A stretch of DNA of 64,000 bases from an uncultured Candidatus Saccharibacteria bacterium (GTDB lineage Bacteria > Patescibacteriota > Minisyncoccia > UBA6257 > UBA11618). A program made the position numbers and the translations under genes. Within the stretch, counting starts at the first letter, position 1. Every line of letters begins with the position of its first letter. The DNA is taken from NCBI GenBank assembly GCA_964436175.1, contig CAYTBX010000001.1, positions 24,306-88,305 on the forward strand. The letters run 5' to 3'. The notes under the pieces were generated by a model. That model worked only from the letters and a program-made list of their open reading frames with translations, was not told where the DNA came from and searched no databases. Of the stretch, positions 6,466 through 42,804 are shown in pieces.

Positions 6466-7578
6466 TCAGACCCTGATCGGCATCACGATATAGAGGAACG
6501 AAGAATCGTCCGCAGGCCTAATCATCGCCGGACGGTTACTGCCGTTCAGTTTTAAGACAACGGACTCCCCCTGCATCGACTTCAAGCCATCTAAAAGATA
6601 CCGCCAGTTAAAGGGAATATCCGCTATCTGCGTACCCGTAACGCGCGCAGGGATGAGGTATTTGTTTTCGCCGAGGAATTGGTTAACCGAATGGACGGTA
6701 ACCGTCTTCCCCTCCGCATCGGTTGAAAGGCGCACGTCGTTCGTTTTACCGCTAAAATTACTTACTAATTTTACGGCGTTCATAAGGTGTGCGCGGTCGA
6801 GCGAGACCTCCGTCTCAGCGTCTTTCGGGATGATTTGTTCGTAATCGGGATACGTGCCGTCGATAAGGCGCGACATCACCTCCACGTCGTCGGATTTAAA
6901 GAGCATCTGGTTGCCGTCACAATGCACCAGGAGGGGCGCGGTGCGCGATATAACCCGTAAGAGCTCCTGCGCAGTACGGAGCGGCACTATGGCCCGAAAT
7001 CCGGCCTCGAACGTATGCTTGAATTTATTTCCGTCGACGATCTTCTCCGCTAAGCGGAAACTGTCGGTGGCGACGAGCTTTAATACCGTCATCTGGAAGT
7101 CGAACAGCACGCCGCTGATTTCCGGACGAATATCCGAGATATGCGCCGCGCTTATTACCTGCTGTAAGGCATCTTGAAAAACGACAGGATCTATTTCCAT
7201 ATATGCGCCCCCATCCGCCATGCGCGGAATAAGGGGGAAATCCTCGGCTGCCGCCCCCTGCATCTTCGCCTCGTAATTATCGGTCTTCACAACGAAGCTG
7301 GACCCCTCGCTTTCGAGATTAATGCGGTCGTGCGCCGTATTATTTACGATGCTGTAAAAAGTAGCGAATGGGACGGATAAGGCCCCCTCTTCCGTGATCT
7401 TCCCCGATATGAGCTTCGTTATAGCGAGCTCGAGGTTTGTGGTTGTAAGTTGGATCTTCGTACCTACCGTACGCACGAGTACGTTTTTCAATATCGGTAA
7501 GTTAGACGAATCAGCTACCGCTCGTTCGGCAGCTAACAGTCCGTTTTTTAGGTTGTCACGGAAGAGTATCAGTTTCAT
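6466..7578 (-). CDS. dnaN: DNA polymerase III beta sliding clamp
   Basis: 370 aa with the typical DnaN N-terminus MKLILFRDNLKNGLLAAERAV, located immediately downstream of dnaA. Confidence 0.9.
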   Translation of the reverse strand: MKLILFRDNLKNGLLAAERAVADSSNLPILKNVLVRTVGTKIQLTTTNLELAITKLISGKITEEGALSVPFATFYSIVNNTAHDRINLESEGSSFVVKTDNYEAKMQGAAAEDFPLIPRMADGGAYMEIDPVVFQDALQQVISAAHISDIRPEISGVLFDFQMTVLKLVATDSFRLAEKIVDGNKFKHTFEAGFRAIVPLRTAQELLRVISRTAPLLVHCDGNQMLFKSDDVEVMSRLIDGTYPDYEQIIPKDAETEVSLDRAHLMNAVKLVSNFSGKTNDVRLSTDAEGKTVTVHSVNQFLGENKYLIPARVTGTQIADIPFNWRYLLDGLKSMQGESVVLKLNGSNRPAMIRPADDSSFLYIVMPIRV

Positions 7579-7784
7579 ATATTCTCTTTATATATAGTTA
7601 GTAGTAGTAGTAAGCGAGTCGGATAGGTGGATAACTTCTTTTTCTCTTGTATATAGTGGTGTTATTCGCATAGTCTTCCTGTGGATTATTTCGCGGTTGC
7701 TGCGGGGATAACTTTTGCGGACTATGGTAATCATGCGAAGTATGTGGTTGTTTGGCAACATGTTATCCGTACATTATCCACAGG
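7579..7784. other. Candidate oriC: a DnaA-box cluster plus an AT-rich tract in the dnaA-dnaN spacer
   Basis: Perfect TTATCCACA at 7774-7782. Near-boxes ggTGGATAA at 7626-7634, TGTGGATtA at 7680-7688, gGgGGATAA at 7704-7712 and TTATCCgtA at 7763-7771. AT-rich atattctctttatatatagttagtagtagtag at 7580-7612. Confidence 0.6.
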
Positions 7785-9185
7785 TTATACATACGCTTTA
7801 TTCAGCATTTCCCTGATAGAAAGTATTTTTTGGCTAAGCGTCTGGTTGCGCGTCATTTCCTGCGATATTTTCTCGTACGCGTAGAGTACGGTCGTGTGGT
7901 CGCGCTTGCCTAGTTTTTCACCAATAAAGGGGTATGAGAGGTCGAGGATATCGCGCAGGAGATAAATGGCAATCTGGCGGGGCTCCACAACCTGTTGCTT
8001 GCGCGAATGGCTCATAATGTCCGCCGTCGGTACTTCGAAGAAATCCGAAACGGTTTGGATTATGACGTCGGGGTGGATATTTTTCTGCGGGGTCTTTATG
8101 ACTTCGGCGATAATTTGCTCGGCGAGTTTTGGCGTTATGATGAGATTTTTAACCTGCTGGTAAAAAAGTATCCGGTTTAATATTCCTTCGAGCTCGCGGA
8201 ATCCCTTTTTAACTTTATTTACGATTTCGGCGATTACTTCGTCAGATAGCTCGGCCTTTTTCTCCGCGAGCTTGGCACGGAGCACGGCCGCCTTAAGTTC
8301 GAAATCGGGGTAGCCGATATCGACTATCATCCCCCCTTCGAACCGCGAGCGCAGGCGTTCTTCGAGTATAGGGATAAACTTCGGCGAACGGTCCGATGAT
8401 ATGATGATCTGTTTACGCTCTTCGTAGAGTGCGTTGAATGTGTGAAAGAATTCTTCTTCGGTACGCGCCTTACCGGCGATGAACTGAATATCGTCGATGA
8501 TAAGGACGTCGATTGCGCGGTACTTTTCCTTAATCGAATCCATGCGCTTATTCTTCATCGCCCAGATGACATCGTTTGTGAATTTTTCTGACGTCACGTA
8601 CCGTGCGCGGACTTTGCTGTGGTAGAGCTTTACCACTTCGTTGCCTAAGGCCTGCATTAAGTGGGTTTTACCCACACCAACACCGCCATATATAAAGAGC
8701 GGATTGTATTTAGTACCTATTTCTTTAATGATTCCCGTCGCCGCGGCATACGCCATTTCGTTGGACGACCCCACGATGAAGGAATTAAGCGTGTGGTGCG
8801 GATTAAGGTTGGTGTTCGGGTCGATAATGAGCTCGTTGAACGCCAGCTGCGAAGAAGAGTCGGTGTACGGCCGGTCACCGCTCGCTTTTTTTGCGCCGTG
8901 AGCGAGCTTCGCGGAATCTTTCGTAAGAATATATTCTACTTTGCGTATACCACTGTCGATTGTACGGAGCGTACCGAAGATCGTGTTGTGATATTTATTT
9001 TCTACCCACTCGCGGGCGAAATTATTCGGCAGTCCGACGGTAACCGTGCCGTCTTTTTTTTCCAGAATAGAACTATTCTTAAACCACGTTATGAAATTAG
9101 GTCGCGATATTTGCAACTCGACTTCGCCGAGTACTTTCTGCCAAAGCTCGTTGCAATCCATGGTACTCATTGTAGAGTCGGGCAC
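7785..9185 (-). CDS. dnaA: Chromosomal replication initiator DnaA
   Basis: GGVGVGKTHLMQALGNE (Walker A), IDDIQFIAGK, and a C-terminal DNA-binding helix region KRDHTTVLYAYEKI. Confidence 0.95.
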   Translation of the reverse strand: MPDSTMSTMDCNELWQKVLGEVELQISRPNFITWFKNSSILEKKDGTVTVGLPNNFAREWVENKYHNTIFGTLRTIDSGIRKVEYILTKDSAKLAHGAKKASGDRPYTDSSSQLAFNELIIDPNTNLNPHHTLNSFIVGSSNEMAYAAATGIIKEIGTKYNPLFIYGGVGVGKTHLMQALGNEVVKLYHSKVRARYVTSEKFTNDVIWAMKNKRMDSIKEKYRAIDVLIIDDIQFIAGKARTEEEFFHTFNALYEERKQIIISSDRSPKFIPILEERLRSRFEGGMIVDIGYPDFELKAAVLRAKLAEKKAELSDEVIAEIVNKVKKGFRELEGILNRILFYQQVKNLIITPKLAEQIIAEVIKTPQKNIHPDVIIQTVSDFFEVPTADIMSHSRKQQVVEPRQIAIYLLRDILDLSYPFIGEKLGKRDHTTVLYAYEKISQEMTRNQTLSQKILSIREMLNKAYV

Positions 9186-9220
9186 TTCCCTGTCAATAAT
9201 GACGTAACGGAAAAAACGTG

Positions 9221-9249
9221 TTGATAAGCGGGTCCGAATCTGCTATAAT
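9221..9249 (+). promoter_or_regulatory. Consensus sigma70 promoter TTGATA-N17-TATAAT for the rpmH operon
   Basis: ttgata at 9221-9226 and tataat at 9244-9249, 6 nt before the rpmH ATG. Confidence 0.6.
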
Positions 9250-9255
9250 GGCCGC

Positions 9256-9408
9256 ATGAGTCAAACCTACAATCCGCACAAGAAAAAGCGCCGCAGGACG
9301 CACGGTTTTTTGAAGCGTATGTCTTCTTCTATGGGCGCGCGCGTTATAACCAAGCGCCGCCGTAAGGGAAGGAAATCTCTCGCGGTTACCGCGGTGCATG
9401 CTCGCTAA
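9256..9408 (+). CDS. rpmH: 50S ribosomal protein L34 (50 aa, below the ORF-track size cutoff)
   Basis: My own translation: MSQTYNPHKKKRRRTHGFLKRMSSSMGARVITKRRRKGRKSLAVTAVHAR. Confidence 0.9.
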   Translation: MSQTYNPHKKKRRRTHGFLKRMSSSMGARVITKRRRKGRKSLAVTAVHAR

Positions 9409-9712
9409 GAAGAACCGCCTGCCGGTGCAGGAGGCGCTTTTGCGCCACGGCCGCACGGTGCGCAAGCCCGCGTTTACGGTAAAAATCTTTAAGGCTTGTT
9501 TCCCCTACGCTCGTTTCGGCATAGTCGTCGGGCGGCGTGTTGCGAAGTCTGCCGTGGGCAGGAATAAAATCCGCCGCATGGCGTTTACGGCGGTGCAGCA
9601 AGCTATGGCCGCGTGGCCGGTTGCCGATTATCTCGTAATTGCGCATCCGGCGGCTGCGGCATACGAAGCTAAACAATGGCATGACGAACTTATTCCATCT
9701 TCTCTTAATTGA
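9398..9712 (+). CDS. rnpA: RNase P protein component
   Basis: 104 aa basic protein in the canonical rpmH-rnpA-yidC order; its start overlaps the rpmH stop. Confidence 0.8.
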   Translation: MLAKKNRLPVQEALLRHGRTVRKPAFTVKIFKACFPYARFGIVVGRRVAKSAVGRNKIRRMAFTAVQQAMAAWPVADYLVIAHPAAAAYEAKQWHDELIPSSLN

Positions 9713-10331
9713 TCCGCTCCTCGCGCTGCTGCTTTTTTTGCACGCGAACGTGACGTTCGGCGACCTCGGGTCCGCGATTATTTTACTTACCGTTATCGTG
9801 CGCTTGGTGCTCTACCCCCTCTTCTATAAGAGTCTTAAACAGCAGCACGTCTTAAAAAGGATCCAGCCGCATATTCAAGACATTCAGACGAAGTATAAAG
9901 GTAATCGCGAAGAGCAGGGTAAAGCCTTGATGGCGCTCTATAAGGAACATGGCGTAAACCCCTTGATGAGTCTTGGGCTTATCTTCGTCCAGTTGCCGAT
10001 ATTGATCGCCCTCTACCAAGTTTTTCTTATGCCTCTACCGGAGCTTTCGCAATCGTTTTTAGGATTGATAACGCTCGACGAGCGGAGTATCCTTTTGGTT
10101 GTCATTGCGGCGCTTCTGCAGTATTTACTGGGCGTAATGAGTATGGCTGGCAATAAGGACGATAAAAGTCCCGCGGCGCAGACGGCGCGCAATATGGTGA
10201 TGATCGGGCCCGTTATCACCGTCGCGGTCTTATGGTCGCTCCCTGCCGCTATCGGCATCTACTGGGTAACGACGACGCTTTTCTCGATAGCTCAGCAGCT
10301 GCACGTGGAACGGCGTTTTCCTAAATCCTGA
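9681..10331 (+). CDS. yidC: Membrane protein insertase YidC/Oxa1, short monoderm-type (an alternative start at 9639 is possible)
   Basis: LYPLFYKSLKQQHVLKRIQPHIQDIQTKYKG...ALMALYKEHGVNPLMSLGLIFVQLPILIALY. Confidence 0.85.
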   Translation: MTNLFHLLLIDPLLALLLFLHANVTFGDLGSAIILLTVIVRLVLYPLFYKSLKQQHVLKRIQPHIQDIQTKYKGNREEQGKALMALYKEHGVNPLMSLGLIFVQLPILIALYQVFLMPLPELSQSFLGLITLDERSILLVVIAALLQYLLGVMSMAGNKDDKSPAAQTARNMVMIGPVITVAVLWSLPAAIGIYWVTTTLFSIAQQLHVERRFPKS

Positions 10332-11794: not shown

Positions 11795-12661
11795 TTATAA
11801 CGCCAGCTTCCAGACGGAGTCGTCGGTTTTGTTGGTGAAGAATAATACGTTTCCCATGAGGGCGGGGTTTTGGATGTCGAGGGATTCCGATGTTCCGCTC
11901 CAGAGTTCCGTTACCTTAGGGGTTTTAAAATCTATCTTCATGATGCGGTCGGTCGAGACGAACTTGTTTTTGAGGTAATCGTCCGGCAGGGTTACTCCCT
12001 CGGGCGCACCCTGCGGCACACCGCAGTACATTACGGGGCCAGTATCCATAATGAAACATTTGGACGGCAGCGTAGCTATGCGGAGCGGGGTCGTTGTCTT
12101 CGTTTTCGTATCAATAAAAGAAAGCGTGAGCGCTCCGGCTTGATCCGCGCTCATGGTAAAAACATAGCGGCCGTTTTTAGACCAGCGTGCCATAAGGCCG
12201 AAGGCCGGCCCTGCCACGCGCGAAACAGTCTTCGTTGCCGTATTGATAGTCCATAAAGATGTTCGCACGAGGTTCGACGGCCGCTCGATTATAAACGTAT
12301 CGTTTTTGCCGTAGGGGTATGAGCGACTATCTTTCGGCGCGAAAAAGAGTTTTTCGGGATTTAATTCACGGATCGTAGAAGTGGCGAGGTATGCGAGCTG
12401 TTCTTCGGTATTTAAAACTTTTACGGGGTCGGCTGAAATTTCATCCAAAGAAACGGGCATCGGTTTTTTCTCCGGTAGTCCGGGGAGGTTCGGTAAAGAA
12501 AGCGACGTAATAGGCGTGTTTGCCTCAGGTGTTTCAGTTACTGCTCCCTCCGTAGGTGGAACGTACGTATGCGGTTCGAGTGCCTGCATGCCGTAATACG
12601 CCACCGTGCCGAAAAGCGCCACGAGTACGACGGTTACGGATATGAAAAGCCACTTACTCAT
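11795..12661 (-). CDS. Membrane-anchored hypothetical protein; the last gene of the T4SS-like operon
   Basis: 288 aa with an N-terminal TM segment (WLFISVTVVLVALFGTVAYY) and a Thr/Lys-rich extracytoplasmic domain. Confidence 0.55.
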   Translation of the reverse strand: MSKWLFISVTVVLVALFGTVAYYGMQALEPHTYVPPTEGAVTETPEANTPITSLSLPNLPGLPEKKPMPVSLDEISADPVKVLNTEEQLAYLATSTIRELNPEKLFFAPKDSRSYPYGKNDTFIIERPSNLVRTSLWTINTATKTVSRVAGPAFGLMARWSKNGRYVFTMSADQAGALTLSFIDTKTKTTTPLRIATLPSKCFIMDTGPVMYCGVPQGAPEGVTLPDDYLKNKFVSTDRIMKIDFKTPKVTELWSGTSESLDIQNPALMGNVLFFTNKTDDSVWKLAL

Positions 12662-13656
12662 TGTTTATTTTTCGCGTTCAACTGCTCTATTAGACCACTC
12701 CTTTTTTGTTGGAGGTCTTGGAGTTGGAGTGCTTCCGATGTTCCAAATGTCGTATTACTAAACGAATACCAGCTCTTCGGCGCATCTGCAGCGGCCTTTT
12801 TCGTCTCTAGTTTTTTAATCTGGATATTCAGCGATTCTATTTCATAGGAAGATGTCGGTTTGCTTGCCGGCTTCATTTGATCCAGATTCATTTGGTACAT
12901 ATCACGAAGAAGATTGTCTCCGCTTCCCGGCTGGGGTTTCAGATTTTTTGATTGAGCCTCAAGTGAGGATAGGTTTTTTTTAAGCGTAGCAAGGCGCTTG
13001 TTTTCCTCCGCACTCCTTTTTTCTGCGGGCGTTTCTTCGATTGTGCTGATGATATCTTCGGTAAGAGTTCTATTGTTTTCGATATCGTCTAACATCTTTG
13101 TTTGTTCGGGGGAGAGATCATCTGTTGATGGCGCATAAGGATTTCTAGCAGTATTTGAAGGTGCTTGGTCCGCTGCTTTTTGCGGTCTTATCATCGTAAC
13201 GTTCGGCAGGGCGAGAATAGTGAGCGCGGGGTTAATAGTATTCAAAACTGCGTACGATCCCATAAGGAGCGCCATGCCAGTCGCGACGTTCCAGAATATC
13301 CCCATCGCCTTCTTTTTCTGGTCTATGACGCCGCTCCAGCTATAGAGTACTCCCCCGTAGACGATGCGCACGAAAGCTACGGTGCCGGCGAGAATGAAGG
13401 CGAGATTATACATCTCTTGAAGGAATGCGGCGAAGTTGGTTTGCCGTTGCTGTACGAGCCCGCCTAACGATTCACATAATATGTAATCGCCGTTGAATTG
13501 GGGGCCGCACCGTTCGGTCGCTGTGGATCCGTATTGCGTAAAGGGATCTTCTTGCCTTGGTCCGACAAAGTTGGAGTCATATTGCGACTGTGCGTAGGCT
13601 GTAGCCCCAATTACGAGGCCGTAGAATAGTAATAATGCCGTAAGTATCCGTTTCAT
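12658..13656 (-). CDS. Pilin-like/VirB2-like membrane protein with a long C-terminal coiled-coil tail; the assignment is speculative
   Basis: A signal peptide followed by two hydrophobic helices (FILAGTVAFVRIVYGGVLY; GIFWNVATGMALLMGSYAVL) and a roughly 180-aa charged coiled-coil tail. Confidence 0.45.
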   Translation of the reverse strand: MKRILTALLLFYGLVIGATAYAQSQYDSNFVGPRQEDPFTQYGSTATERCGPQFNGDYILCESLGGLVQQRQTNFAAFLQEMYNLAFILAGTVAFVRIVYGGVLYSWSGVIDQKKKAMGIFWNVATGMALLMGSYAVLNTINPALTILALPNVTMIRPQKAADQAPSNTARNPYAPSTDDLSPEQTKMLDDIENNRTLTEDIISTIEETPAEKRSAEENKRLATLKKNLSSLEAQSKNLKPQPGSGDNLLRDMYQMNLDQMKPASKPTSSYEIESLNIQIKKLETKKAAADAPKSWYSFSNTTFGTSEALQLQDLQQKRSGLIEQLNAKNKQ

Positions 13657-14227: not shown

Positions 14228-14647
14228 TTATACGGCCTGCGTTGTTTTTGCGGCTTTCGCGGCAAGCGCCCGTTTGCTCATGGCGCGTCTCGGATTTTTT
14301 ATTGCGGGTGTAATGCTTTCCGCTATGGCTGCCTGTTTGGGGTGTCGGTCGAGCCATATGGTCGCGAGCATCGCTATCGTCCGTATCGGGAGCGTATTCA
14401 TTATCGGAACGAATTCGAAGAGATTTCCCACGAGCGTACGTTCGGCGCCCACTCCTTTCATAGTAGCCCACAGCCAGAGCACTACGGAAGCAGCAATGTT
14501 AATAAAAAATTTAACGAGCTCCCCTACGCCGAACAGCGCGTCGAGAAATGTGGCAAAAAAGTCCGCGATGTCGAAGAGAATGCATACGCCGACCATAACG
14601 GCTCCTTCGATACCGTTTATTTTAGGTTGCTCCGTTATTTCTTCCAT
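14228..14647 (-). CDS. Small polytopic membrane protein of the T4SS-like locus
   Basis: 139 aa with 3-4 hydrophobic helices; it overlaps the VirB4 stop. Confidence 0.5.
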   Translation of the reverse strand: MEEITEQPKINGIEGAVMVGVCILFDIADFFATFLDALFGVGELVKFFINIAASVVLWLWATMKGVGAERTLVGNLFEFVPIMNTLPIRTIAMLATIWLDRHPKQAAIAESITPAIKNPRRAMSKRALAAKAAKTTQAV

Positions 14648-16335
14648 GCGGCGTCTTTCGGGTTCGTGGTTATTACTTTGTCTTCGGGTGATGACGCGAG
14701 CACTTGGATGACGGCATGCTTCGTGCCCGCGAAAAAGAGCCCCTGCCCCACAGGCGTTTCGAGAAGTAGGCTCTTCTCCCCTTCGGATAGGTTGAACGTC
14801 TTTTGGAGCACGTCCATCATCGCGGGCGATTGTTTAAGGAGTAGCTGGAGCGAGGAGTTCGTAATAATAGGGCGGCCGTAGGGCGATAAAAGAAAGTCTT
14901 CGACGTCCTGCGTGATGGTCGTTACGCCCAAGTAGTATTTACGTGCGCGCTTTACGAGCCCGAAGAGGAATAGGGCGCCCTCGGGGTAGCGCATGAGCCA
15001 CCACGCTTCGTCGACGATCATGACGCGTTTTTTTATCTTTCCGCGCACGACGTTCCATATGAAGTTGAGTACGAGGTACATAGCGATAGGCCGCAGGCCT
15101 TCTTCGAGGTCGCGAAGGGAAAAGACGATGAGCCGGTTACCGAGGTCAACGTTTGTGGGGAAATTCGTGAAGCCCGAATAGCTACCCTCCGTGAAGCGGT
15201 ACAGGCGTTCAGCGATGGACTTACCGCCCTCCATGCTTTCGAGGACGGTCTTCAGATCCGCGAGTACGGGTGCAGTTTTTTTGGAAAAGTCTTTACCAGG
15301 GACGATGTCTTTTAGTGCGTAGGTCTCTGTGATGCCGCGGTCGAGCATTGCCTCCTCTTCAGGCGTTATCTCCCCCACCATCATCTTTACGAGGCCGGCT
15401 ACAGTGACGACGTGCGACTTCAGGGCGTCGTCGTCGCTTTCGTCTTCGGGGACGTTCGGTATGTCGAACGGATTAATATGTTCGGTTGAGGCTAGAGAGA
15501 CATTCACGAAACTGCCGCCAACGGACTCGGCAAGCGCTTTGTATTCGTGTTCGGGGTCGATGATTATCACGTCCACCCCTGTCATCATTAAGCGGAGTGC
15601 CTCGAGTTTGGCGGCATACGACTTGCCGCCGCCGGACTTGGAGAATATAACCATGTTCGCATTCTCAAGGCTGAAGCGGTCGAATATCACGAGCGTGTTA
15701 TCCGTGCGGTTTACGCCGTAGAGTATCCCCGTGTCACCCGTAAGGTCGGTTGCGACGAATGGGAATAAAGACGACGCGGGGCCGGAGTTCATCGGCGTAT
15801 GTACTGCGAGCCGGTCCGCGGCTATGGGGAGCGTGGAGTTCCAGCCCTCCATTTGCTCGAAGGTTGCCTGCTTCGCATACACCAGCCGAGTTTCGAGCAT
15901 ATTCACGATACGGCCCTCGAGTATTTCTAGATCCTTTAGGGTGTCGGCATAGAACGTTATATAGAGGCCGACCATAAAGAGGCGTTCGCGCGCCTGCTGG
16001 AGCGAGTCGCGCAGACCTTCCACGTCTTGGTATGCGGTTTCGAGTAAGGGGTTACGCACTAACCCCTTTTCTTCTTGGTCCATCAGCTGTGCTTCGATCT
16101 GCGCAGTTTTTCTTTTCAGTTTTTTTAGGGTTTCTGCGGTATCTGCCGGATGCATGAAGATGCTTACGTCCATGAGTTCTGGTGCGTTAACGATTGGGCT
16201 GAGCCAGCCGGTAGAAAGGTAGCGCGGGTAGTTGGAAACGAAAACCGTGCGGGCGAACTTCTTCCCTACCTTCATGTGGTCCGGCGCTATCGTAATTTCC
16301 GGCGGGGCGATGATATCTGCGAGATCTTTTTTCAT
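14635..16335 (-). CDS. virB4: VirB4/TrbE/CagE-family type IV secretion ATPase (ATPase portion)
   Basis: Walker A VIFSKSGGGKSYAAKL, Walker B MIVDEAWWLM, and the conserved mid-region ARTVFVSNYPRYLSTGWLSPI. Confidence 0.85.
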   Translation of the reverse strand: MKKDLADIIAPPEITIAPDHMKVGKKFARTVFVSNYPRYLSTGWLSPIVNAPELMDVSIFMHPADTAETLKKLKRKTAQIEAQLMDQEEKGLVRNPLLETAYQDVEGLRDSLQQARERLFMVGLYITFYADTLKDLEILEGRIVNMLETRLVYAKQATFEQMEGWNSTLPIAADRLAVHTPMNSGPASSLFPFVATDLTGDTGILYGVNRTDNTLVIFDRFSLENANMVIFSKSGGGKSYAAKLEALRLMMTGVDVIIIDPEHEYKALAESVGGSFVNVSLASTEHINPFDIPNVPEDESDDDALKSHVVTVAGLVKMMVGEITPEEEAMLDRGITETYALKDIVPGKDFSKKTAPVLADLKTVLESMEGGKSIAERLYRFTEGSYSGFTNFPTNVDLGNRLIVFSLRDLEEGLRPIAMYLVLNFIWNVVRGKIKKRVMIVDEAWWLMRYPEGALFLFGLVKRARKYYLGVTTITQDVEDFLLSPYGRPIITNSSLQLLLKQSPAMMDVLQKTFNLSEGEKSLLLETPVGQGLFFAGTKHAVIQVLASSPEDKVITTNPKDAAWKK

Positions 16336-16339
16336 GATG

Positions 16340-17032
16340 TTATTCTTGCGGGATGACGTGGCGTTCTACTGTTTCGGGGTTGTAGAGGTTGTATAATAAT
16401 TCCGCGAGCTCGTCTTCTTCGAGCGGCACGGCGCGGAGGCCTATCTGGGACAGACCGCTCGCCACTTGTTCGGTGCGCTGTGCGAGTGCGGCGAAGGCGC
16501 TATCCCCCACTACGCTCTGCGAGCTTCGCGGGGCAGGCCCCACTTCGGTTTGTGGTGTTGCGGTATCTGTCGGGTCATCTACTTTTTTCCGCTTGAAGAA
16601 TCCGGCGATGGCGTCGAATATTGCGCGTTGGTTTGCGGGTAATACGGAGTCGTACGGCACGATCACGAAGAACGTTTTTTCCATAATCGGGTTGTCTGCT
16701 ACGAGGGACGCCACGAAGTCTTTATATCCACTCACGAGGCCTTTTAATAAGTCGTTGGTCTCCCCGCGCTCTATGCCCGCAAGTTCGTTTATATACCCGT
16801 CGATATTTATTTTGCGGGAGTGTATGAAAATCTGCACGGAGAAGTCGAGTCCGTTCAAAAAATTCTGGTACGCGCCTATCGCGGCGTTCTGTTCGTCCTC
16901 CGAGCGGAGCTCGAAGTTCATGCCGGATACGAGTATCACGGCACGCAGGCCGCCGTCCCGCAATACTATGCAGTTGCGCTCAATGCGTTCCGCTTCGAGA
17001 AGGTTTTGGGTTGCGAGGGATTCTTCTGCCAT
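16340..17032 (-). CDS. Probable N-terminal domain of VirB4, encoded as a separate ORF
   Basis: 230 aa. NCIVLRDGGLRAVILVSGMNFELRSEDEQNAAIGAYQNFLNGLDFSVQIFIHS resembles the CagE/TrbE N-terminal region. It is separated from the ATPase ORF by 4 nt in a different frame, and the two ORFs together total about 796 aa. Confidence 0.5.
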   Translation of the reverse strand: MAEESLATQNLLEAERIERNCIVLRDGGLRAVILVSGMNFELRSEDEQNAAIGAYQNFLNGLDFSVQIFIHSRKINIDGYINELAGIERGETNDLLKGLVSGYKDFVASLVADNPIMEKTFFVIVPYDSVLPANQRAIFDAIAGFFKRKKVDDPTDTATPQTEVGPAPRSSQSVVGDSAFAALAQRTEQVASGLSQIGLRAVPLEEDELAELLYNLYNPETVERHVIPQE

Positions 17033-17042: not shown

Positions 17043-17519
17043 CTATCTGTAGTCTATCCGTTTAGCGACCGCGCGGTCGCCGTCCGTGCGGCGTACGATT
17101 TCCCCGCGGTCTTGCGCCGGCAGGCTGCGGCTAAAAAACCCGTTGACTGATGTTTCGCGCCCCGCGACCGGACGCGTCCCCGCTGTCATGCCGAGCCCGA
17201 GCCGAGCGAGTAATCCCGTAGGCGCCTGCTTCTTTACACCGTCCGTTTTTTGCCATGTATACGTGCGGCCGCCGGTATAGTAGCGGATAGCGGCAATCGT
17301 TACCGTCATGAGTGGCCTGCCGTTGTATTTTACGAGCGCGAATGCGAGCGCGGCAGTGCCTATAAAGACCGACGTTATAAGCCAAAGCCATGTCACGAGT
17401 ATGAAGAACGATACGAATATCGTGAGGAATCCCCCTGCGATATAAAAGAATTGTTTGAGCGTTAAGGGGCCTACGATGCGGTCCTCGACGTCTATGTATT
17501 GGGGTACTTGAAATTGCAT
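17043..17519 (-). CDS. PrgI/VirB3-like small membrane protein
   Basis: MQFQVPQYIDVEDRIVGPLTLKQFFYIAGGFLTIFVSFFILV, an N-terminal motif plus two TM helices, positioned immediately upstream of VirB4. Confidence 0.55.
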   Translation of the reverse strand: MQFQVPQYIDVEDRIVGPLTLKQFFYIAGGFLTIFVSFFILVTWLWLITSVFIGTAALAFALVKYNGRPLMTVTIAAIRYYTGGRTYTWQKTDGVKKQAPTGLLARLGLGMTAGTRPVAGRETSVNGFFSRSLPAQDRGEIVRRTDGDRAVAKRIDYR

Positions 17520-17523
17520 GGTA

Positions 17524-18246
17524 TCAGGTGAACCACTTCGATTGCGGGAGCTTCGGCTTTGTCCGATCCCCTTCGGGTGCGTTCCTTGTTGTACCCGCAA
17601 TGTTAAGCGGCGTGCGTAACTGGCTGTAGTGGACTACGCGCTCGATCACGACACGCGGAGAAGCGGCGCTCTCCACGCCCGTATCCGTCTGTGGCGAGTA
17701 GCTGAAGGATCTCGCCCCGCTTTGTGCGACTGCTGCGCGCGGCTCTTCGTGTAATATAAAGGGCTGCGCGGCTGCCGGTGCGGGGGTGGGTTCGGGCGCG
17801 TTTTCCGTGGCCGCTTGTACGGGGTTTGCGGGTATCGGTGGCTGTGGCGCTGGTATGGGGCGCGGCATTGCTTCGCTCGCCGGATGCGGCGCTGTTGCCG
17901 GGGCGTTGAATCCTAAAAGAGCCGTGTTCACGCCGCCATAACGAAGTGCCGGGGCAATGGGTTCTATTATTTCTTTCGCTATTGCCTCGGTAATATTTTT
18001 AGCCAGGTCTGCGTCCGCGTTCATTTCTTTCGCGAGCTCCGCCTTAAAGCTCTCCGGCGGCAGGTCTTGCGTCACGAGGCGCAGTACTAAGAGGGGTAGA
18101 ACGCGCTCCTGCTCGTCGGACAATATAAAGCGCGCGGCAATCGCTTTAATGATTGCACTCGTGTCGTCTGAAGCGATCCATTCCTTAATCTCCGGCTGGA
18201 GCGTTTTGAATATGACGTAGAGACGGGCGATTTGTTCAAGTGTCAT
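17524..18246 (-). CDS. Hypothetical soluble protein with a Pro/Ala-rich linker
   Basis: 240 aa with no TM segment; translationally coupled to its neighbours. Confidence 0.5.
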   Translation of the reverse strand: MTLEQIARLYVIFKTLQPEIKEWIASDDTSAIIKAIAARFILSDEQERVLPLLVLRLVTQDLPPESFKAELAKEMNADADLAKNITEAIAKEIIEPIAPALRYGGVNTALLGFNAPATAPHPASEAMPRPIPAPQPPIPANPVQAATENAPEPTPAPAAAQPFILHEEPRAAVAQSGARSFSYSPQTDTGVESAASPRVVIERVVHYSQLRTPLNIAGTTRNAPEGDRTKPKLPQSKWFT

Positions 18247-21200
18247 AGATTTTGTCCGTTAGTTCCGCGTGACTGCCCTGATTGATTATCGTTCTTATTC
18301 TTTTCGTCCCGCAAGAAGCTCCGTATCGGTTCGGGGATTACTGGTGTTGGTGGGGGCGTAAGAGGTCCTTGGTAGGCTATGCGTTTCGGTTGATCCGCCG
18401 GCATGAATTTCGGGATGACGCTGATTTGGTTTTCATTTACATTTCGTTCACGCTCCACCATGGTCTTTATCGGCTCTGGTATAGGCGTGGGCTTTTGTTC
18501 CGGTGGCACAAGAGGTCCTTTGTATTCTATTTTATTTTTCGGCTCCCATTCCGCATCGATCGGTTCTGGTGGCTGCCATCCCCTACCTTCGGTTTTAATC
18601 CGTTCATTTTCCTGTTTTACGAGGACATCGAGCTCGGGCGGCGTTACGGGTGTTCCTGCTGGCTTTGTCTCGGGTTGTGGATTAGTCGCAGCTTCCAGGC
18701 TCGCTAGATACTCCTCGCTTAGATCTGCGGCTTGGGGAGTTTTTGCCGTTTCCGGTGTTTCACTTTGGGTTTGCTTAGCCGATTTTCTGAACATTTCGTC
18801 TATCGTAGCTCCGATATCAGGGCCTTTTGAGTTCGCTGGCTCCGTTTCTTCGGGTTCCGTGTACTGAGGTTTATTAGCTGCCGGCTTCGGTTGCGGAGTG
18901 GCTGTGGGAGGTGGTGTTACTGGCTGTGCCGGTTGTTGTGGCGCCAACGTATATGTCGGTGCTGCCGCAGCCGCTCCTCCGGCAGCCGGATCGGGGGGTG
19001 CGGGCGGATTTTGAGGAGGCTTCTGCGGTCCGGCACTCGGCGGATTGCTCCCTCTGTCGTCGTCCTCCCACCATCCTTTTTCTTTTACTTTCGTTTCTTG
19101 CTTTTCCGTTTTCTCTTTCTGCTCTTTCTTCTCTTTTTGCTTTTCTTTGTCGGGGTTGCGCAAGCGATAATCCGTTTCGATTACGCGGAAGGCGTCTTTG
19201 CCTTCGGGCATTCTGACTATAGCCCAGCTTGAATTAGTTGTATTTTCTACGATAGGCTCTGCAAGTGTATCAAGGCGTGCAAGAGTTGCTGGGTCGGCGA
19301 ATGCGTTAAGGTATTCATCTCGTAAAGTCTCAAGAACAGCCCGTTGCTGTTCGGTGTCCGGTTCTTTTTGGAGTTGGCCGATATGTATTCCTTGGAGCTT
19401 GCCGAATATGCGCTTATTACGCAGGATATCCGGATGGATCAGAGATATATCTTTTTCCTTAGAAAAGTTTTTCTTTGCGAAGTCGCTAAGATCCTTTTCG
19501 GTAAATATATATTCACCGGTAATAGCATCCTTTTTATCGATGGTTTTAAGGAATTCATCCCGCTGTTTTCCCTTGTCGGCATCGCTGATGTATTTTAAGT
19601 GGTCATTCGTAAGATTGCGGACAACATCCTTATTACCAAGCAGTTGCGGGGTTAGTGCTGCTGCCGCTTCTTTTTTCGCAAACGTTTTCCCCATGTACTT
19701 ATCGAATTCCGCACTGCCTATTTTCTCCCGTAGGCGGATGATGGTGTCTGAAAACGCATCCCGATGCTCTTTGCTCTTCGGTAGTTTTGCTAGTTGATCG
19801 CCAGAAAGGCGCCTCACCACCTCAAGGTCCTCAAGTGCCTCCACTGGCAGGTCATCCCCATCTTCTGGCTTAAAGGCTTTAATAGCATCATCAAACTTCT
19901 TGCCGTCTTCTTTGTTGACGTATTCATCACCCTCCTTTTCTATATTCAAGCCGAATTTGCTGTAGAGGTGAGGCGCCTTCTTTAATATATCCGCGACAAA
20001 ACCGTAGCGTTTGAGGGCGGGAATGAATTCGTCTAATTTTTCCTGCGATACGTTTTTTTCGTCATCGCTGTTGTTCAGGAGTCCGCGCGCAACGCCTTCT
20101 TTCGCGAAGGCCGCCATGCGTTCGGAACTTAGCTTGATATCGGGATTATAAATAGCATTTCTTAGTTGTACATCGCCCATGCCCTTAGCTTCGGTTTCGA
20201 AGTTGCCGAGATTCTTACTCGTCCCTGCGGCGAATTTATTGATTTGCGGCGCAAAGCGGCTAATGAGAGGAATGCGTTGCAAGAATCCTGCAAGTTGGTT
20301 TCCGCGGTTATTTTCTTTCGTTCCGTCTCCGCCGCCGCTCAAGTACTTGCGGCCCGCCCATGCGGGGGCGCCCGTTGCCGCGCCTATTGCCCAGCCCTTT
20401 AATCCCTGCGCCCATTTGAGGGCGATTTCGCCGCCTGCGCAGCCGATGTTTCGCGATTCGGTGATTCCCAAAAAGAGCATGGTGAGGACGAGGACCATAT
20501 TCGTAATGGTTTGAAAGGGCGCTGCCATGAGCGAGAGCGTTCTCGTGGCGGTGAGCCCCCCTGGTAATCCCTTCGCCTGCTCGAATGAATTCAGTAGCGT
20601 ATTAATGTCGATAGCTTGCGAAGACCCGAACCCAACCTGCGCCTTGATCTGCACGAACATAATGACGATGTACATGGAAAACGTCGCGGCGGGCAGGTAT
20701 GTTAGCTGGCAGGTAAATTTTCCGTACCACTTGCCGTAGTAGCTCCGCGTATTGGGGAAGGAATAACAGAGGATGGCGAGGGGCATTACTATAATGAGCC
20801 CCGATAGCTGCGCGAAGCGCCATATGGTTGTGAGCCCCACCATGAGCATGCCGAGCGCGGCGAACGCGGTGAAGAGTGCGACGAAAAAGACGGAAAGTAT
20901 GCCTTCTAGTATGCCGTCGCCCTTGAGTGATTCGTATGCCTGTAGTCCGTCGCTCGTTACGAGGAGCTTTTGGGGGTTGAATGCCGAGGCGAGCGTTTCG
21001 GTAAATTGCTTCATACCCTCCCATGACCCCGCCACACCTCCTCCGCCGAGCGCGGCGTTCACGAAAAAGTTAGTGAGCATGTTCGATATGTCTATAAGGA
21101 ACCCCGCGATAGAGAAGCTGAAGTTAACGAGCACCGCTGCGAGGATGAAGTTCTTTATAAGGTTCTTCATGCCGTAGCTTTCGTAGCCGAGCATGGTGGC

Positions 21201-21692
21201 GTAGGCGATTACGACGATGCCTATCGTGAACCCGAGGTTCGCGAGGTCGCGGCAGAAGCGCCAGCCGAGCTGTACGACTTCGCTATCGAGGATAGTGGTA
21301 TTGAGATAGAGACCGAACGTAACGAGGACACTCGCAAGCGTGAAAGCCGTTGAGCCGATGAAGCCGGCGATATAGCTGACGGCAAAAAGCACGTAGCCGA
21401 TACCCTTGAGGCCGATCCAGCCGATGAACGACCCGCCGATGCCGGCAGCTGCCTCTGCGATCTTAGGGACTATACCGCTTATGAGCGGTCCGGTGCCGGA
21501 CCCGGTCACCGTTTGCGCGAGCGGGATAGCGATGCTTGAGGGGATGAGTCCGCCGGTAAATGCACTGATCGCTCCGCCAGCAGCTGCTTGTCCTATTGTC
21601 GGTGCTTGCGTTTGCGCATGCGTTGAAAGCGCCGCCCCGAAAAGAAGGGTGGTTGTCGTTATCGTAAGGATTGTTTTTAGGAACTTATGCAT
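18243..21692 (-). CDS. VirB6/TrbL-like polytopic membrane protein with a roughly 550-aa hydrophilic C-terminal extension
   Basis: 1149 aa. A signal peptide and many TM helices occupy the first ~600 aa. The C-terminus has a KE-rich block (KEKQKEKKEQKEKTEKQETKVKEK), a Pro-rich block, and a ~35-aa tandem repeat (YKGPLVPPEQKPTPIPEPIKTMVERERNVNENQ / YQGPLTPPPTPVIPEPIRSFLRDEKNKNDNQ). Confidence 0.65.
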   Translation of the reverse strand: MHKFLKTILTITTTTLLFGAALSTHAQTQAPTIGQAAAGGAISAFTGGLIPSSIAIPLAQTVTGSGTGPLISGIVPKIAEAAAGIGGSFIGWIGLKGIGYVLFAVSYIAGFIGSTAFTLASVLVTFGLYLNTTILDSEVVQLGWRFCRDLANLGFTIGIVVIAYATMLGYESYGMKNLIKNFILAAVLVNFSFSIAGFLIDISNMLTNFFVNAALGGGGVAGSWEGMKQFTETLASAFNPQKLLVTSDGLQAYESLKGDGILEGILSVFFVALFTAFAALGMLMVGLTTIWRFAQLSGLIIVMPLAILCYSFPNTRSYYGKWYGKFTCQLTYLPAATFSMYIVIMFVQIKAQVGFGSSQAIDINTLLNSFEQAKGLPGGLTATRTLSLMAAPFQTITNMVLVLTMLFLGITESRNIGCAGGEIALKWAQGLKGWAIGAATGAPAWAGRKYLSGGGDGTKENNRGNQLAGFLQRIPLISRFAPQINKFAAGTSKNLGNFETEAKGMGDVQLRNAIYNPDIKLSSERMAAFAKEGVARGLLNNSDDEKNVSQEKLDEFIPALKRYGFVADILKKAPHLYSKFGLNIEKEGDEYVNKEDGKKFDDAIKAFKPEDGDDLPVEALEDLEVVRRLSGDQLAKLPKSKEHRDAFSDTIIRLREKIGSAEFDKYMGKTFAKKEAAAALTPQLLGNKDVVRNLTNDHLKYISDADKGKQRDEFLKTIDKKDAITGEYIFTEKDLSDFAKKNFSKEKDISLIHPDILRNKRIFGKLQGIHIGQLQKEPDTEQQRAVLETLRDEYLNAFADPATLARLDTLAEPIVENTTNSSWAIVRMPEGKDAFRVIETDYRLRNPDKEKQKEKKEQKEKTEKQETKVKEKGWWEDDDRGSNPPSAGPQKPPQNPPAPPDPAAGGAAAAAPTYTLAPQQPAQPVTPPPTATPQPKPAANKPQYTEPEETEPANSKGPDIGATIDEMFRKSAKQTQSETPETAKTPQAADLSEEYLASLEAATNPQPETKPAGTPVTPPELDVLVKQENERIKTEGRGWQPPEPIDAEWEPKNKIEYKGPLVPPEQKPTPIPEPIKTMVERERNVNENQISVIPKFMPADQPKRIAYQGPLTPPPTPVIPEPIRSFLRDEKNKNDNQSGQSRGTNGQNL

Positions 21693-23053
21693 CTCTGTAA
21701 TAGCGTTTGCAGTTCGGGTAGGCGCGTTGCCGAACGGGCCGTAAGGCTAGCGCGGTCTGCCTTAGTTTTTGCGGCGTACGCCTCCGCTTGCGACTTATTG
21801 ATAAGGCGGCCTACGCCCGCGGGGCCTGTCATATAGCTCGCGAGCACATCGAGGTCGGTGCTCGTTTCGTTCATGAGCGTGTTTTTGGCGTTCGTGAGAG
21901 GTGTCGTATTTTGCTGTAATTGGCTAATTGCTGTCGTAATATCCTCAAGCGCCTTTTGTTCCACGGCGAGTGCGGTTATGGTGGTCTCCCTGCCGCTCGT
22001 TCCCCTGCCAGCTTGGCAATTATTAAGTTCACTCGTTTTGTTAACGAGGGTCTGCTGCGTCGTTTGCAGGGCGAGCAAGTCCGTCTGTGCGGCTAAGAGG
22101 GGCGTTAGGGTATCTTCGATTTGCGCCATGTAGCTCACCTTTACGGCGGTCGCGTTACCCGCCTTGTATCCTTCGAGTGCGCGGCAGGCGTTTAAGGCGT
22201 CGCCCGTAAGGCCTGAGCATGGCGCGGCGTTCGTCGGTTGCCTGGGCACGTAGCCGATTTGCGGGGCGTTCGCGGATACCACGCCCTGGAAGCCGTTTAC
22301 GCCTTCGCGTATGACGCGGTTTATAAGCGCGTCTGAAATCGCGGCGATATACGCCGCCATGCTCTTGGAATTAACGATATAGTCGAGGTCGGCGCCGATT
22401 ACTTTCGCGGCGGCGGCGCCAAGCTGCATACCCGGTGTCACGATATAGCAGCGGCCGAATTCGTCGCACTTCTGTTGGCCCAAAAAGCCGTTGTTGGCCT
22501 GCACCTGCTGGTTGGCGGCGAAGCGCTTATCGGCTATGCGCGTTTCTTTTTCGTCCATGGCAAGAAGAAGCCCCCCGTAGAAGTTGTTTCGCGGTTGCCA
22601 TTGCTCGCGGTACGCCACGAAGCCGCCGGTTGAAAAGTTGGCGTAGAAGCCCGCCATATTACGCACTATTTGGTCTAAGGTGCACCGTACTTGGCCGGAG
22701 AAACGCGGTGGCTGAAGCACGGCGATTTGGAGTTGTATGCCGAAGGGTTTGCAGATGCCGGCGAGTTTCATTTCCGCGAGGATATCCCCTGTTACGATGT
22801 TGCCGTATTGCGCGAGGAACGCGTTCCAGTCCTGTATGAATAATGGCTTTCCGCCACCTTGGATCCAGTTGACCATTTGGTCAACGACCATGTCGAAAAA
22901 GCGTTTTTTTATGGTTTCTTGTATAGCTTCGGCTGCTAAGGCGACGGCGGTTTCTGCGCCGAATTGGGCGTGCGCTTGTTGTACGGGAAGCGCGGGCAAG
23001 GCGCTTATAAGGGCGAGTGCTATAGCGAGTGGGGCGAGGAAGCGGCGTTTCAT
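21677..23053 (-). CDS. Secreted hypothetical protein of the T4SS-like locus
   Basis: 458 aa with a signal peptide (MKRRFLAPLAIALALISALPA), several Cys, and a Q/T-rich helical C-terminus. Confidence 0.55.
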   Translation of the reverse strand: MKRRFLAPLAIALALISALPALPVQQAHAQFGAETAVALAAEAIQETIKKRFFDMVVDQMVNWIQGGGKPLFIQDWNAFLAQYGNIVTGDILAEMKLAGICKPFGIQLQIAVLQPPRFSGQVRCTLDQIVRNMAGFYANFSTGGFVAYREQWQPRNNFYGGLLLAMDEKETRIADKRFAANQQVQANNGFLGQQKCDEFGRCYIVTPGMQLGAAAAKVIGADLDYIVNSKSMAAYIAAISDALINRVIREGVNGFQGVVSANAPQIGYVPRQPTNAAPCSGLTGDALNACRALEGYKAGNATAVKVSYMAQIEDTLTPLLAAQTDLLALQTTQQTLVNKTSELNNCQAGRGTSGRETTITALAVEQKALEDITTAISQLQQNTTPLTNAKNTLMNETSTDLDVLASYMTGPAGVGRLINKSQAEAYAAKTKADRASLTARSATRLPELQTLLQRCISS

Positions 23054-23799
23054 TTGATCGTTTCCAGTAACTTGAGCGCGAGCATGGCGTAGATCGGGTC
23101 ATTTTCATAATCCGCAACCGCCTCGAAAATACGCTGCTTGCCGAGCGCGCGGCGGATCGCCTGCGTATACTCCGTAATGAGCGCCGGCGGCACGGCGAGG
23201 GCGCGCAGGGATGTCGCTTCCGCCTCGTAACGCTTCGCAAATATTTTCATCTGGCTTGCGACGGGGTCGTCTATGGGCGGCGGAGGCTCCGATTCCGTTT
23301 TTCCCGTAATGCTCGCGGCTGCGGCGCGGTATGCGGTAGTGGATTGTGCGTCGTCCACCGTTAGCTCCGCTTGGGTTATTTCAGGAAAGAAGTAGGCGGT
23401 ATTAAAACTCTTCATGGACTCCGTGACTGCGGCTTCCGCCATGCCGTCCGCACCCATAACGGTAAGGTTGTCCCCCACGGGCCCTTCGGGGTTTTTATCG
23501 ACGATGTTTTTACCGATGAGGGAGGCGAGGTTTGCCGTAAGGTTAGTGCTCGCGCTCACATTCGCTTGTGGGGTTGCTATAGCCGTTGTTTCAACTGGCG
23601 CTTCTGCGGTGGTCGGCACTGGTTCGCCGATGGCGTTTTGTAATGGGTCTGGTTTGCGAGCGGCTTCTATAGAACCCTCTTTTTCCGCAGTGGAATGTAT
23701 TTTATCGCGCGCGACAGTATTGCCGAACACGACAACGCCGGTGAAAATGCCCGCGGATACGAAAAACAACAGGCCTGCTTTTGCTTTGAGCCCTAACAC
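23050..23799 (-). CDS. Bitopic membrane protein with VirB8-like topology (GTG start); the first gene of the operon
   Basis: 249 aa with an N-terminal TM segment (LLFFVSAGIFTGVVVFG) and an extracytoplasmic domain. Confidence 0.45.
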   Translation of the reverse strand: MLGLKAKAGLLFFVSAGIFTGVVVFGNTVARDKIHSTAEKEGSIEAARKPDPLQNAIGEPVPTTAEAPVETTAIATPQANVSASTNLTANLASLIGKNIVDKNPEGPVGDNLTVMGADGMAEAAVTESMKSFNTAYFFPEITQAELTVDDAQSTTAYRAAAASITGKTESEPPPPIDDPVASQMKIFAKRYEAEATSLRALAVPPALITEYTQAIRRALGKQRIFEAVADYENDPIYAMLALKLLETIK

Positions 23800-42510: not shown

Positions 42511-42511
42511 A

Positions 42512-42778: not shown

Positions 42779-42787
42779 GCTTTATTA

Positions 42788-42804
42788 ATACCCTCTAGGG
42801 GTAT
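42788..42804. promoter_or_regulatory. Candidate CsoR operator, a GC-core inverted repeat
   Basis: ATACCC-tctag-GGGTAT, about 10 bp upstream of the csoR start. Confidence 0.4.

Follow-up and report, generated by a model that had tools for sequence, protein, structure and literature searches.

We analysed a 64,000-nt stretch of DNA (the window; positions 24,306 to 88,305 of contig CAYTBX010000001.1, assembly GCA_964436175.1) from an uncultured Candidatus Saccharibacteria bacterium, and conclude that its 1149-residue open reading frame (ORF) at 18243-21692, on the minus strand, very probably encodes an extended VirB6 protein of a Patescibacterial type IV secretion system (T4SS). Extended VirB6 proteins are defined as a VirB6 core to which at least one large hydrophilic domain, central or C-proximal, is added (PMC12857230), and here the hydrophobic helices stop at about residue 416 and are followed by a hydrophilic extension of about 733 residues, i.e., 64% of the protein. 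An original prediction for this DNA had delimited the same 1149-residue minus-strand ORF and proposed both its TrbL/VirB6 likeness and its membership of the extended class, all of which agree with the data below. The same uninterrupted ORF, with its domain order, recurs in 12 or more independent assemblies of Ca. Harrisonbacteria/Parcubacteria (sources: NCBI, ENA, JGI and Logan), and 12 homologs (P0001-P0010, P0012 and P0014 in alignment A1; identity 49-82%) are full-length single ORFs with the same architecture. The closest genomes are metagenome-assembled genomes of Ca. Harrisonbacteria and other Parcubacteria, and we take the source cell to be an ultra-small, Ca. Harrisonbacteria-like member of the Parcubacteria. 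Both the extended VirB6 class and Patescibacterial T4SSs have been published, whereas the helical domain and the tail motifs of the present protein have not been described before. Our best overall explanation, to which we give an even chance, is a VirB6 platform subunit carrying a cytoplasmic extension that serves as scaffold and tether.

The VirB6 identity of the core follows from a sub-threshold TrbL match, a TrwI/VirB6 fold match and conserved synteny, taken together. Pfam family PF04610 (TrbL) matched residues 155-357 with an E value of 3.6e-4 and 20.8 bits, under its gathering score of 25.9, and was matched at E <= 0.01 in 15 of the 49 family members, the best value being 9.9e-6. PF19590 has a precomputed match in 11 distant homologs. 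Apart from TrbL, the Pfam searches of the 49 members gave isolated spurious matches only and no extra domain that would fix the compartment; NCBIfam gave no match for the protein, and a sequence search of the PDB with the family profile returned only weak low-complexity matches (ribosomal L19, E2o and a huntingtin fusion; E >= 0.02). An AlphaFold2 single-chain model was built with the 49 family sequences (mean predicted local distance difference test score, pLDDT, of 71.7) and its helices were assigned by DSSP. In a Foldseek search of the PDB with the full model, the top matches were the R388 TrwI/VirB6 chains of 7o3v, 8rt9 and 8rtd, with a probability of 1.00, target-normalised template modelling scores of 0.51-0.54 (0.53 for 7o3v_F), about 300 aligned columns, E = 0.03 and 13-16% identity. 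As in R388 TrwI and A. tumefaciens VirB6 (~300-340 residues), the core has long, mostly hydrophobic helices and an N terminus placed outside, and the genes for VirB3 and VirB4 adjoin. Canonical VirB6 proteins differ by their low identity (13-16%) and by lacking the signal peptide, the 60-residue variable N-region and the 733-residue C-terminal extension of the present protein. As for synteny, the genes for PrgI, TrsD and VirB4 lie 0.6-3.6 kb downstream of virB6 on the same strand, which is also the case in the closest genome (L001), in L004 and, in part, in L005.

The domain anatomy was delimited with Kyte-Doolittle hydropathy, an approximate Hessa-scale insertion energy (dG), conservation and the structure model. 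The protein starts with a signal peptide or first membrane anchor (residues 1-26; 21615..21692, minus strand like all the segments that follow), in which MHK and a hydrophobic stretch lead to a probable cleavage site between THA and Q; the small-x-Ala motif is kept in the homologs, and residues 2-25 form a signal-peptide-like helix in the model. It is followed by a variable region rich in Gly, Ala, Ser and Thr (residues 27-87; 21432..21614), which has low pLDDT and is predicted, from its negative charge, to lie outside the membrane. The VirB6/TrbL core (residues 88-416; 20445..21431), to which both the TrbL and TrwI matches belong, comprises six long helices by DSSP (88-132, 138-167, 175-214, 261-310, 316-353 and 382-416), four of which contain a 19-mer with dG at or below about 1.2. 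Past residue 416 there is no 19-mer with dG below +10, hence no transmembrane candidate. The first ~600 residues had been taken as polytopic in the original prediction; the hydrophobic part ends some way before that, and the remainder, correctly recognised as hydrophilic, has a length of about 733 rather than about 550 residues.

The extension opens with a juxtamembrane linker (residues 417-499; 20196..20444), rich in Trp, Gly, Lys and Arg, with an isoelectric point of 10.1. The linker, which AlphaFold2 modelled with low confidence, carries the motif GCAGG.IALKW..GLK.WA.G...GAP.WAGRKYLSGGG and is marked by conservation and basic charge, with G421, A424, G430, W434, W445, K449, S452-G454 and R463 invariant. 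In a separate protein of 4001 residues (P0052), 12 stretches match residues 460-507 of the linker with E = 1.6e-4; these may be repeated linker segments or an artefact of composition.

The linker leads to an all-alpha, solenoid-like domain (residues 500-848; 19149..20195). This domain had been overlooked: the extension was originally described by its low-complexity Lys/Glu and Pro blocks, which do exist, but about half of it is folded, with pLDDT values of 92-98 over residues ~500-850. A separate model of residues 455-870 reached a pLDDT of 87.2 and a predicted template modelling score of 0.78. Within the domain there are three internal repeats of about 72 residues, also unnoticed before: R1 (residues 615-679; 19656..19850), R2 (residues 680-751; 19440..19655) and a partial, weaker R3 (residues 752-795; 19308..19439). 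R1 and R2 align by hhalign with a probability of 97.7% and E = 1.4e-12 over 60 columns (single-sequence shuffle test, z = 4.5), and R2 and R3 with 84% and E = 7e-6 (z = 3.4). A HMMER search with residues 455-850 against 1.84 billion representative sequences returned 12 clusters at E <= 1e-3, nine of which are full VirB6-type proteins whose match begins at about residue 390-480, downstream of the VirB6 core. Because the matches are few and fused to VirB6 cores, the helical domain is, as far as such searches reach, specific to a narrow Parcubacterial clade. One match of 256 residues (P0051) was considered as a stand-alone repeat subdomain, in which a signal peptide or its lack might have told the compartment; it was rejected, because its gene begins only 24 nt inside a 1.1-kb contig and the protein is thus probably a VirB6 cut short.

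The remaining tail, about 300 residues with 18% Pro, is predicted to be disordered, with pLDDT below 50 beyond about residue 870, apart from the short helices 960-970, 1018-1035, 1078-1086 and 1123-1136. At its border stands the Lys/Glu block KEKQKEKKEQKEKTEKQETKVKEK (residues 849-872; 19077..19148), a single helix in the model (849-871), the DNA of which contains a 9/18-bp tandem repeat at 19111-19147 by Tandem Repeats Finder. The homolog P0001 lacks exactly 6 residues (18 bp) in this block, consistent with slippage polymorphism. A disordered block rich in Pro, Ala and Gln follows (residues 884-941; 18870..19043), with pLDDT below 50 and many indels among homologs. Both blocks had been pointed out in the original prediction and are located here. 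Beyond them, conservation is concentrated in islands. The first, KGPDIG..ID (residues 955-970; 18783..18830), includes the short helix 960-970, and its K956 and D965 are invariant, D959 and I960 nearly so. The second, TPVTPPELD.L....E.RI (residues 1012-1035; 18588..18659), includes helix 1018-1035 with a pLDDT of about 80 and has P1015, L1021 and E1028 invariant.

The C-terminal part of the tail contains a two-copy repeat. Copy 1, EPKNKIEYKGPLVPPEQKPTPIPEPIK followed by a short helix, occupies residues 1050-1089 (18426..18545), and copy 2, QPKRIAYQGPLTPPPTPVIPEPIR followed by a helix (1123-1136, pLDDT ~73), occupies residues 1101-1137 (18282..18392). The units at 1057-1089 and 1107-1137 align with a local score of 101, compared with 26.5 +/- 5.1 in 2000 shuffles (z = 14.6; no shuffle reached the score), and the corresponding sub-profiles align by hhalign with a probability of 97.5% and E = 8e-12, the negative-control pairs staying at or below 4%. 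Two ~35-residue units had thus been rightly noticed, but they are not near-identical: identity is 54% by alignment columns (22 of 41) and 61% by aligned pairs (22 of 36), and the period is 50 residues (Y1057 to Y1107), with the unit reaching upstream to (P)K.(K/R)I.Y. Because Tandem Repeats Finder detected no DNA-level tandem repeat in this part, the duplication is, judged from its sequence, old. In copy 2, R1124 is invariant, and conservation reaches 90% or more at P1117, P1120, E1121, P1122 and N1136. The protein ends in an (E/S)RG.N.. motif (residues 1142-1149; 18246..18269), in which N1145 is invariant, with 90% conservation or more at Q1140, R1142 and G1143; similar (E/S)RG.N endings are seen in the more distant P0013, P0019 and P0020, and a Pro-rich C-terminal end even in relatives of about 650 residues. 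As to conservation of the repeat in orthologs, the last copy is kept, whereas copy 1 is absent in 5 of the 12 homologs of A1 (P0002, P0006, P0008, P0012 and P0014). The length polymorphism that had been anticipated is present: after the YR.RNPD anchor, the tails of P0001-P0014 span 209-370 residues and hold one or two PEPI(R/K) copies. When the window was scanned in its six reading frames, the motifs PEPIR, Y.GP..PP, NQ.S.IPK and GWWEDD were found only in the VirB6 ORF. A word-indexed search with residues 1037-1149 gave no match, even to known family members, probably owing to composition filtering, and is therefore uninformative.

These segments evolve at very different rates. Housekeeping proteins and ATPases share about 99% identity with those of L001 (VirB4, 98.8%; DnaA, 98.7%), versus 80.5% for VirB6. 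Within VirB6, the core (98.6% identity; ratio of nonsynonymous to synonymous substitution rates, dN/dS, of 0.016) and the linker (98%; 0.03) are nearly unchanged, the helical domain is intermediate (85.8%; 0.09), and the low-complexity tail (69%; 0.21) and the N-region (41%; 0.60) are the most divergent. Against the L001 gene (4750-8178), dS is about 1.0 in the 3' half of virB6 and 0.46 in the core. Among the homologs, P0008 is nearly identical to the window protein at the start of the helical domain and P0004 in the tail. Since dS differs by region and the homologs share different segments, the sequences suggest that virB6 is mosaic among close relatives, through recombination or assembly chimerism.

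The side of the membrane on which the extension lies was judged from three indirect lines, namely positive-inside charges, insertion energetics and helix parity. On this basis, we slightly favour a placement at the cytoplasmic end of the VirB6 bundle. The mean net charge (K+R minus D+E) over the 49 members is -2.8 for the N-region, -0.2 for loop 136-149, +1.3 for loop 169-180, -1.6 for loop 215-260, +1.9 for loop 312-329 and -0.6 for loop 352-388, and residues 412-470, which follow the last hydrophobic helix, have a net charge of +6.2 (K+R 10.5 versus D+E 4.3). Such alternating charges agree with the classical topology of VirB6, which has the N terminus outside, five transmembrane segments and the C terminus inside. 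Models with five or seven transmembrane segments leave the C terminus inside, and the model with six, which leaves it outside, breaks the charge rule at every loop. In the structure model, tight hairpins of 5-7 residues occur at 133-137, 168-174 and 311-315, and loop 311-315 and residue 416 would lie at that end of the bundle which also has the alpha1-alpha2 hairpin loop; by analogy with the R388 hairpin inserted in the inner membrane, that loop probably faces the cytoplasm. The classical topology, including the cytoplasmic C terminus, has been reported from experiments on VirB6 of A. tumefaciens and Brucella and on ComB6 of H. pylori (summarised in PMC7648143). The extracellular stalk or adhesin first proposed for the extension is weakened by the loop charges and the basic residues 412-470, which favour an internal C terminus, and by the violation of the positive-inside rule in models with an external one. 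In addition, a crude composition classifier with 11 cytoplasmic and 7 exported proteins or domains of the window as controls gave weak evidence: it scored the helical domain at -0.041, a more cytoplasmic value than that of all controls (cytoplasmic ones, -0.007 to -0.024), and the tail at +0.047, which is exported-like.

By homology with R388 TrwI and with work on Gram-positive systems, we infer that the core (residues 88-416) most likely forms a pentameric membrane platform on which the VirB2-like pilin is assembled. The extension would leave the VirB6 bundle at its cytoplasmic end, so that five solenoid domains and five tails of about 300 residues per machine would stand at the channel entrance as scaffold and flexible tether. 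The conserved motifs of the tail may be docking peptides, with VirB4, TrsD, the product of the downstream gene g240 and cargo or adaptors as candidate partners. Behind the docking idea is the conservation pattern, in which islands and a near-invariant PEPIR / RG.N end are retained in an otherwise indel-rich and fast-evolving tail. We put forward this docking and tether role tentatively, as somewhat short of an even chance. A comparable case is DotL of the Dot/Icm system, a coupling protein whose long C-terminal extension reportedly organises adaptors.

Several points weigh against a cytoplasmic scaffold. In the R388 cryo-electron microscopy structure only alpha1 and alpha2 of VirB6 span the membrane, and alpha5-alpha7 are in the periplasmic stalk (PMC9259494); by analogy, taking the hydrophobic helices as polytopic may not hold for the machine in its assembled state. 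On intact cells, trypsin reaches the C-terminal repeats of Anaplasma VirB6-3 and VirB6-4, and in F TraG the C-terminal domain has an extracytoplasmic action (PMC7648143); the topology of extended Gram-positive VirB6 proteins has been called uncertain (PMC12857230). The tail is fast-evolving, variable in length and rich in Pro, like wall-spanning surface regions of monoderms, and it evolves like the external N-region and the pilin-like gene of the cluster. The composition classifier misplaces three of the seven exported controls, and no binding partner of the tail was identified.

The same observations nourish the view that the extension is extracellular, in which everything after alpha1-alpha2 lies outside and the solenoid and tail cross the wall or S-layer and show their motifs to the host as an adhesin or stalk. 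To the membrane embedding of alpha1 and alpha2 alone in R388, the surface exposure of the Anaplasma repeats, the extracytoplasmic domain of F TraG and the stated uncertainty for Gram-positive proteins, this view adds a tail rich in Pro, Thr and Gln with exported-like composition (+0.047), its span of 209-370 residues with one or two motif copies, and dN/dS values of 0.2-0.4 in the tail versus 0.016 in the core (0.60 in the external N-region and 0.44 in the pilin-like gene); moreover, these bacteria depend on a host and must make contact with it. However, the basic segment after the last hydrophobic helix and the charge alternation fit an internal C terminus, and Pfam and insertion dG revealed neither another transmembrane segment nor an LPXTG motif or a domain for wall binding. 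In composition the helical domain is cytoplasm-like, disordered regions evolve fast whatever the compartment, and five domains of about 730 residues each would presumably fill the site where the pilin and any VirB5 analogue are assembled. An external extension appears rather unlikely to us.

A cytoplasmic start of the extension could also be combined with an exported end, if the tail were a T4SS substrate that passes through the channel or beside it, or is cut off and released, and so reaches the surface or the host with the core left anchored. The tail has about 300 residues and is predicted to be disordered, and conservation extends to its extreme C terminus, where secretion signals of many T4SS substrates are located. 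Such a route would join the internal C terminus with the surface-exposed repeats and the proposed cleavage and release of other extended VirB6 proteins (PMC7648143). But the tail showed neither a recognisable cleavage site nor any known T4SS signal motif, and no homolog of the tail as a free protein turned up, the sole short match (P0051) being probably truncated. We regard this route as improbable. Equally improbable, in our estimate, is a bolder variant: guided by its PEPIR...RG.N end, the tail might be fed into its own channel or pilus as a cis-translocated tether or pilot, which the anchored subunit would show or hand over at the surface of the host cell, or the solenoid and tail might replace a coupling protein as substrate receptor. 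If true, either would reconcile the internal C terminus of VirB6 with the surface exposure of other extended VirB6 tails.

Slightly less credible still is that the tail is a relaxed spacer with no specific function, that the repeat is a neutral old duplication and that only the core, perhaps with the helical domain, matters. The many indels, the one or two motif copies, the dN/dS of up to 0.2-0.4 in the tail and the dispensability of the first repeat copy in five close homologs are what such a spacer would show, but dN/dS is well under 1, and P1117, P1120, E1121, P1122, R1124, N1136, Q1140, R1142, G1143 and N1145 are near-invariant at the very end of the variable tail. Two more islands in the tail are conserved, and a Pro-rich tail is kept in the distant members of about 650 residues. 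Finally, that the long ORF joins a VirB6 gene to a downstream gene by an assembly or annotation artefact, a concern with no positive support that was raised because the core stops at about residue 416 and the remainder has no known domain, is practically dismissed by the continuous ORF in the 12 or more independent assemblies and by the constant position of the helical domain downstream of a VirB6 core.

With a scaffold on the cytoplasmic side still preferred, the protein can be compared with other long VirB6-like proteins. Rickettsiales RvhB6 and Anaplasma VirB6-3 and VirB6-4 likewise carry, besides a VirB6 core, a large hydrophilic C-terminal extension that contains repeats and varies among strains, but they belong to diderm P-type T4SSs with 4-5 tandem virB6 paralogs and extensive DNA-level tandem repeats. 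The present system is of monoderm type and has one virB6 gene, whose product has two old repeat copies and a folded solenoid domain; the flanking g458 and g240 have no TrbL match in Pfam, so virB6 is single at this cluster. Membership of the Rickettsiales Rvh type was therefore rejected: with a single virB6, a CD1110/MPF_FATA-type VirB4, TrsD and PrgI, no DNA repeat array and a Parcubacterial setting, the system is not like that of the Rickettsiales, with which the extension had been compared at the outset. Among Firmicutes, TcpH (pCW3), ConG (ICEBs1) and Orf15 (Tn916) of MPF_FA systems are monoderm VirB6 proteins of 700-900 residues that also have extra, partly unstructured C-terminal regions (PMC12857230). 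They differ in that the present protein has no NCBIfam or Pfam match to their families and its VirB4 is of FATA/CD1110 rather than FA type. The C-terminal region of TcpH is reportedly drawn as cytoplasmic and in contact with the coupling protein. F-plasmid TraG similarly has a polytopic VirB6-like N-terminal half and a large hydrophilic C-terminal half (PMC7648143), the latter acting in mating-pair stabilisation and entry exclusion. It differs in that it is part of a diderm system and its C-terminal domain is extracytoplasmic, whereas the evidence here leans towards the cytoplasm; TraG_N had no Pfam match at E <= 0.01 in the present protein.

The chromosomal cluster around virB6 matches the T4SSs described for Patescibacteria, or the candidate phyla radiation (CPR), which are MPF_FATA-related, contain VirB4, TrsD, PrgI, VirB6 and VirB2-like pilins, usually lack a relaxase and often lie near dnaA, dnaN and ksgA (Quinonero-Coronel et al. 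2025, PMC12102498). The likeness extends to the monoderm MPF_FATA-like composition, with PrgI/VirB3 among its parts, to the absence of a relaxase nearby and to the adjoining dnaA, dnaN and ksgA. A difference is that no C-terminal extension of VirB6 is described in that study, where "C-terminal" appears once, on VirB1 (PMC12102498). The gene order is UvrD, KsgA, g249, g458, VirB6, g240, PrgI, TrsD, VirB4, g139, g271, pilin and g288, and further on DnaA and DnaN; L001 and L004 keep this order, and L002, L003 and L005 keep parts of it. Its direct neighbours dnaN, dnaA and yidC (6466-10331) place the cluster near the replication origin, in agreement with what has been published on Paceibacteria. 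A scan of large ORFs of the window revealed neither a relaxase nor a coupling protein.

Upstream of virB6 and also on the minus strand, g458 (21677..23053) encodes a signal-peptide protein with several Cys residues, which is 96% identical to its L001 counterpart; it has no Pfam match, its family is unknown, and it overlaps virB6 by 16 nt. It is preceded by g249 (23050-23799, minus strand), conserved but also of unknown family, and both genes are syntenic in L001-L004. The successive genes g249, g458 and virB6 overlap, and the first two could be candidates for the missing VirB5- or VirB8-type parts. Downstream, g240 (17524..18246, minus strand) is syntenic in L001 and L004, and its start overlaps the stop of virB6 in the sequence ATGA, which suggests translational coupling. 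Its product has a helical N-terminal part of about 100 residues and a Pro-rich middle, with no signal peptide, transmembrane segment or Pfam/NCBIfam match, and is a candidate partner of the VirB6 extension.

The PrgI/VirB3-like gene (Pfam PrgI, E = 4e-9) was listed as an ORF at 17043-17600 (minus strand) with a TTG start and a 77-nt overlap with g240. As ortholog alignments begin at Met28 (nt 17519), the true gene is probably 17043..17519. It is followed by a TrsD-like gene (16340..17032, minus strand; NCBIfam TrsD, E = 3.9e-6), the product of which resembles the VirB4 N-terminal domain (VirB4_plasma N-terminal region, E = 2.4e-7), and by the gene for a VirB4 ATPase of the CD1110/MPF_FATA type (14635..16335, minus strand; NCBIfam NF045971, E = 1.2e-112, 377.6 bits versus a cut-off of 325). 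Against ATPase_TcpF, this VirB4 reaches only 15 bits (E = 0.0037), versus 378 bits for the CD1110 family. A split VirB4, consisting of the 230-residue ORF and the 566-residue VirB4 downstream of it, was considered and rejected, as TrsD is known to resemble the VirB4 N-terminal domain; the pair is kept in L001, L004 and L005, and TrsD has been described for Patescibacteria (PMC12102498).

A candidate VirB2-like pilin gene (12658..13656, minus strand) encodes a protein of 332 residues with a signal peptide, a sub-threshold T4SS_pilin match at residues 75-132 (Pfam, E = 7e-4) and a long hydrophilic C-terminal extension of about 190 residues. It evolves fastest in the cluster, with 61% amino acid identity to L001 (99% for VirB4) and a dN/dS of 0.44. 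Elsewhere in the window, a PilB-type T2SSE ATPase is encoded at 1232-2635, and a metal-resistance/efflux island at 40210-46431 and 49235-54129 (minus strand) encodes two P-type ATPases, of which one has an HMA domain, as well as a multicopper oxidase, an RND pump of AcrB/CusA-like type (E = 1e-201) and an HlyD-type adaptor. In a presumed monoderm CPR bacterium, one would not expect such a pump together with a membrane-fusion adaptor.

In Patescibacteria the T4SS is reported to be essential for the epibiotic lifestyle in the one member tested, its substrate and mechanism being unknown (PMC12102498, PMC12857230); the essentiality concerns Ca. Southlakia epibionticum, as cited in PMC12102498. The function of the extra domains in extended VirB6 proteins has likewise been stated as unknown (PMC12857230). 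On whichever side of the membrane its extension lies, the present protein is an incremental addition to a known class, from an uncultivated lineage, and overturns nothing by itself. It does offer a well-defined test case, in which a modelled helical-repeat domain is combined with sharply conserved tail motifs, and it provides concrete objects of study, namely the topology of residues 417-1149 and the partners of the PEPIR and RG.N motifs. If external, the extension would be a candidate host-contact element. If cytoplasmic, it may recruit cargo or ATPases for this T4SS, in which no gene for a coupling protein lies close to virB4.

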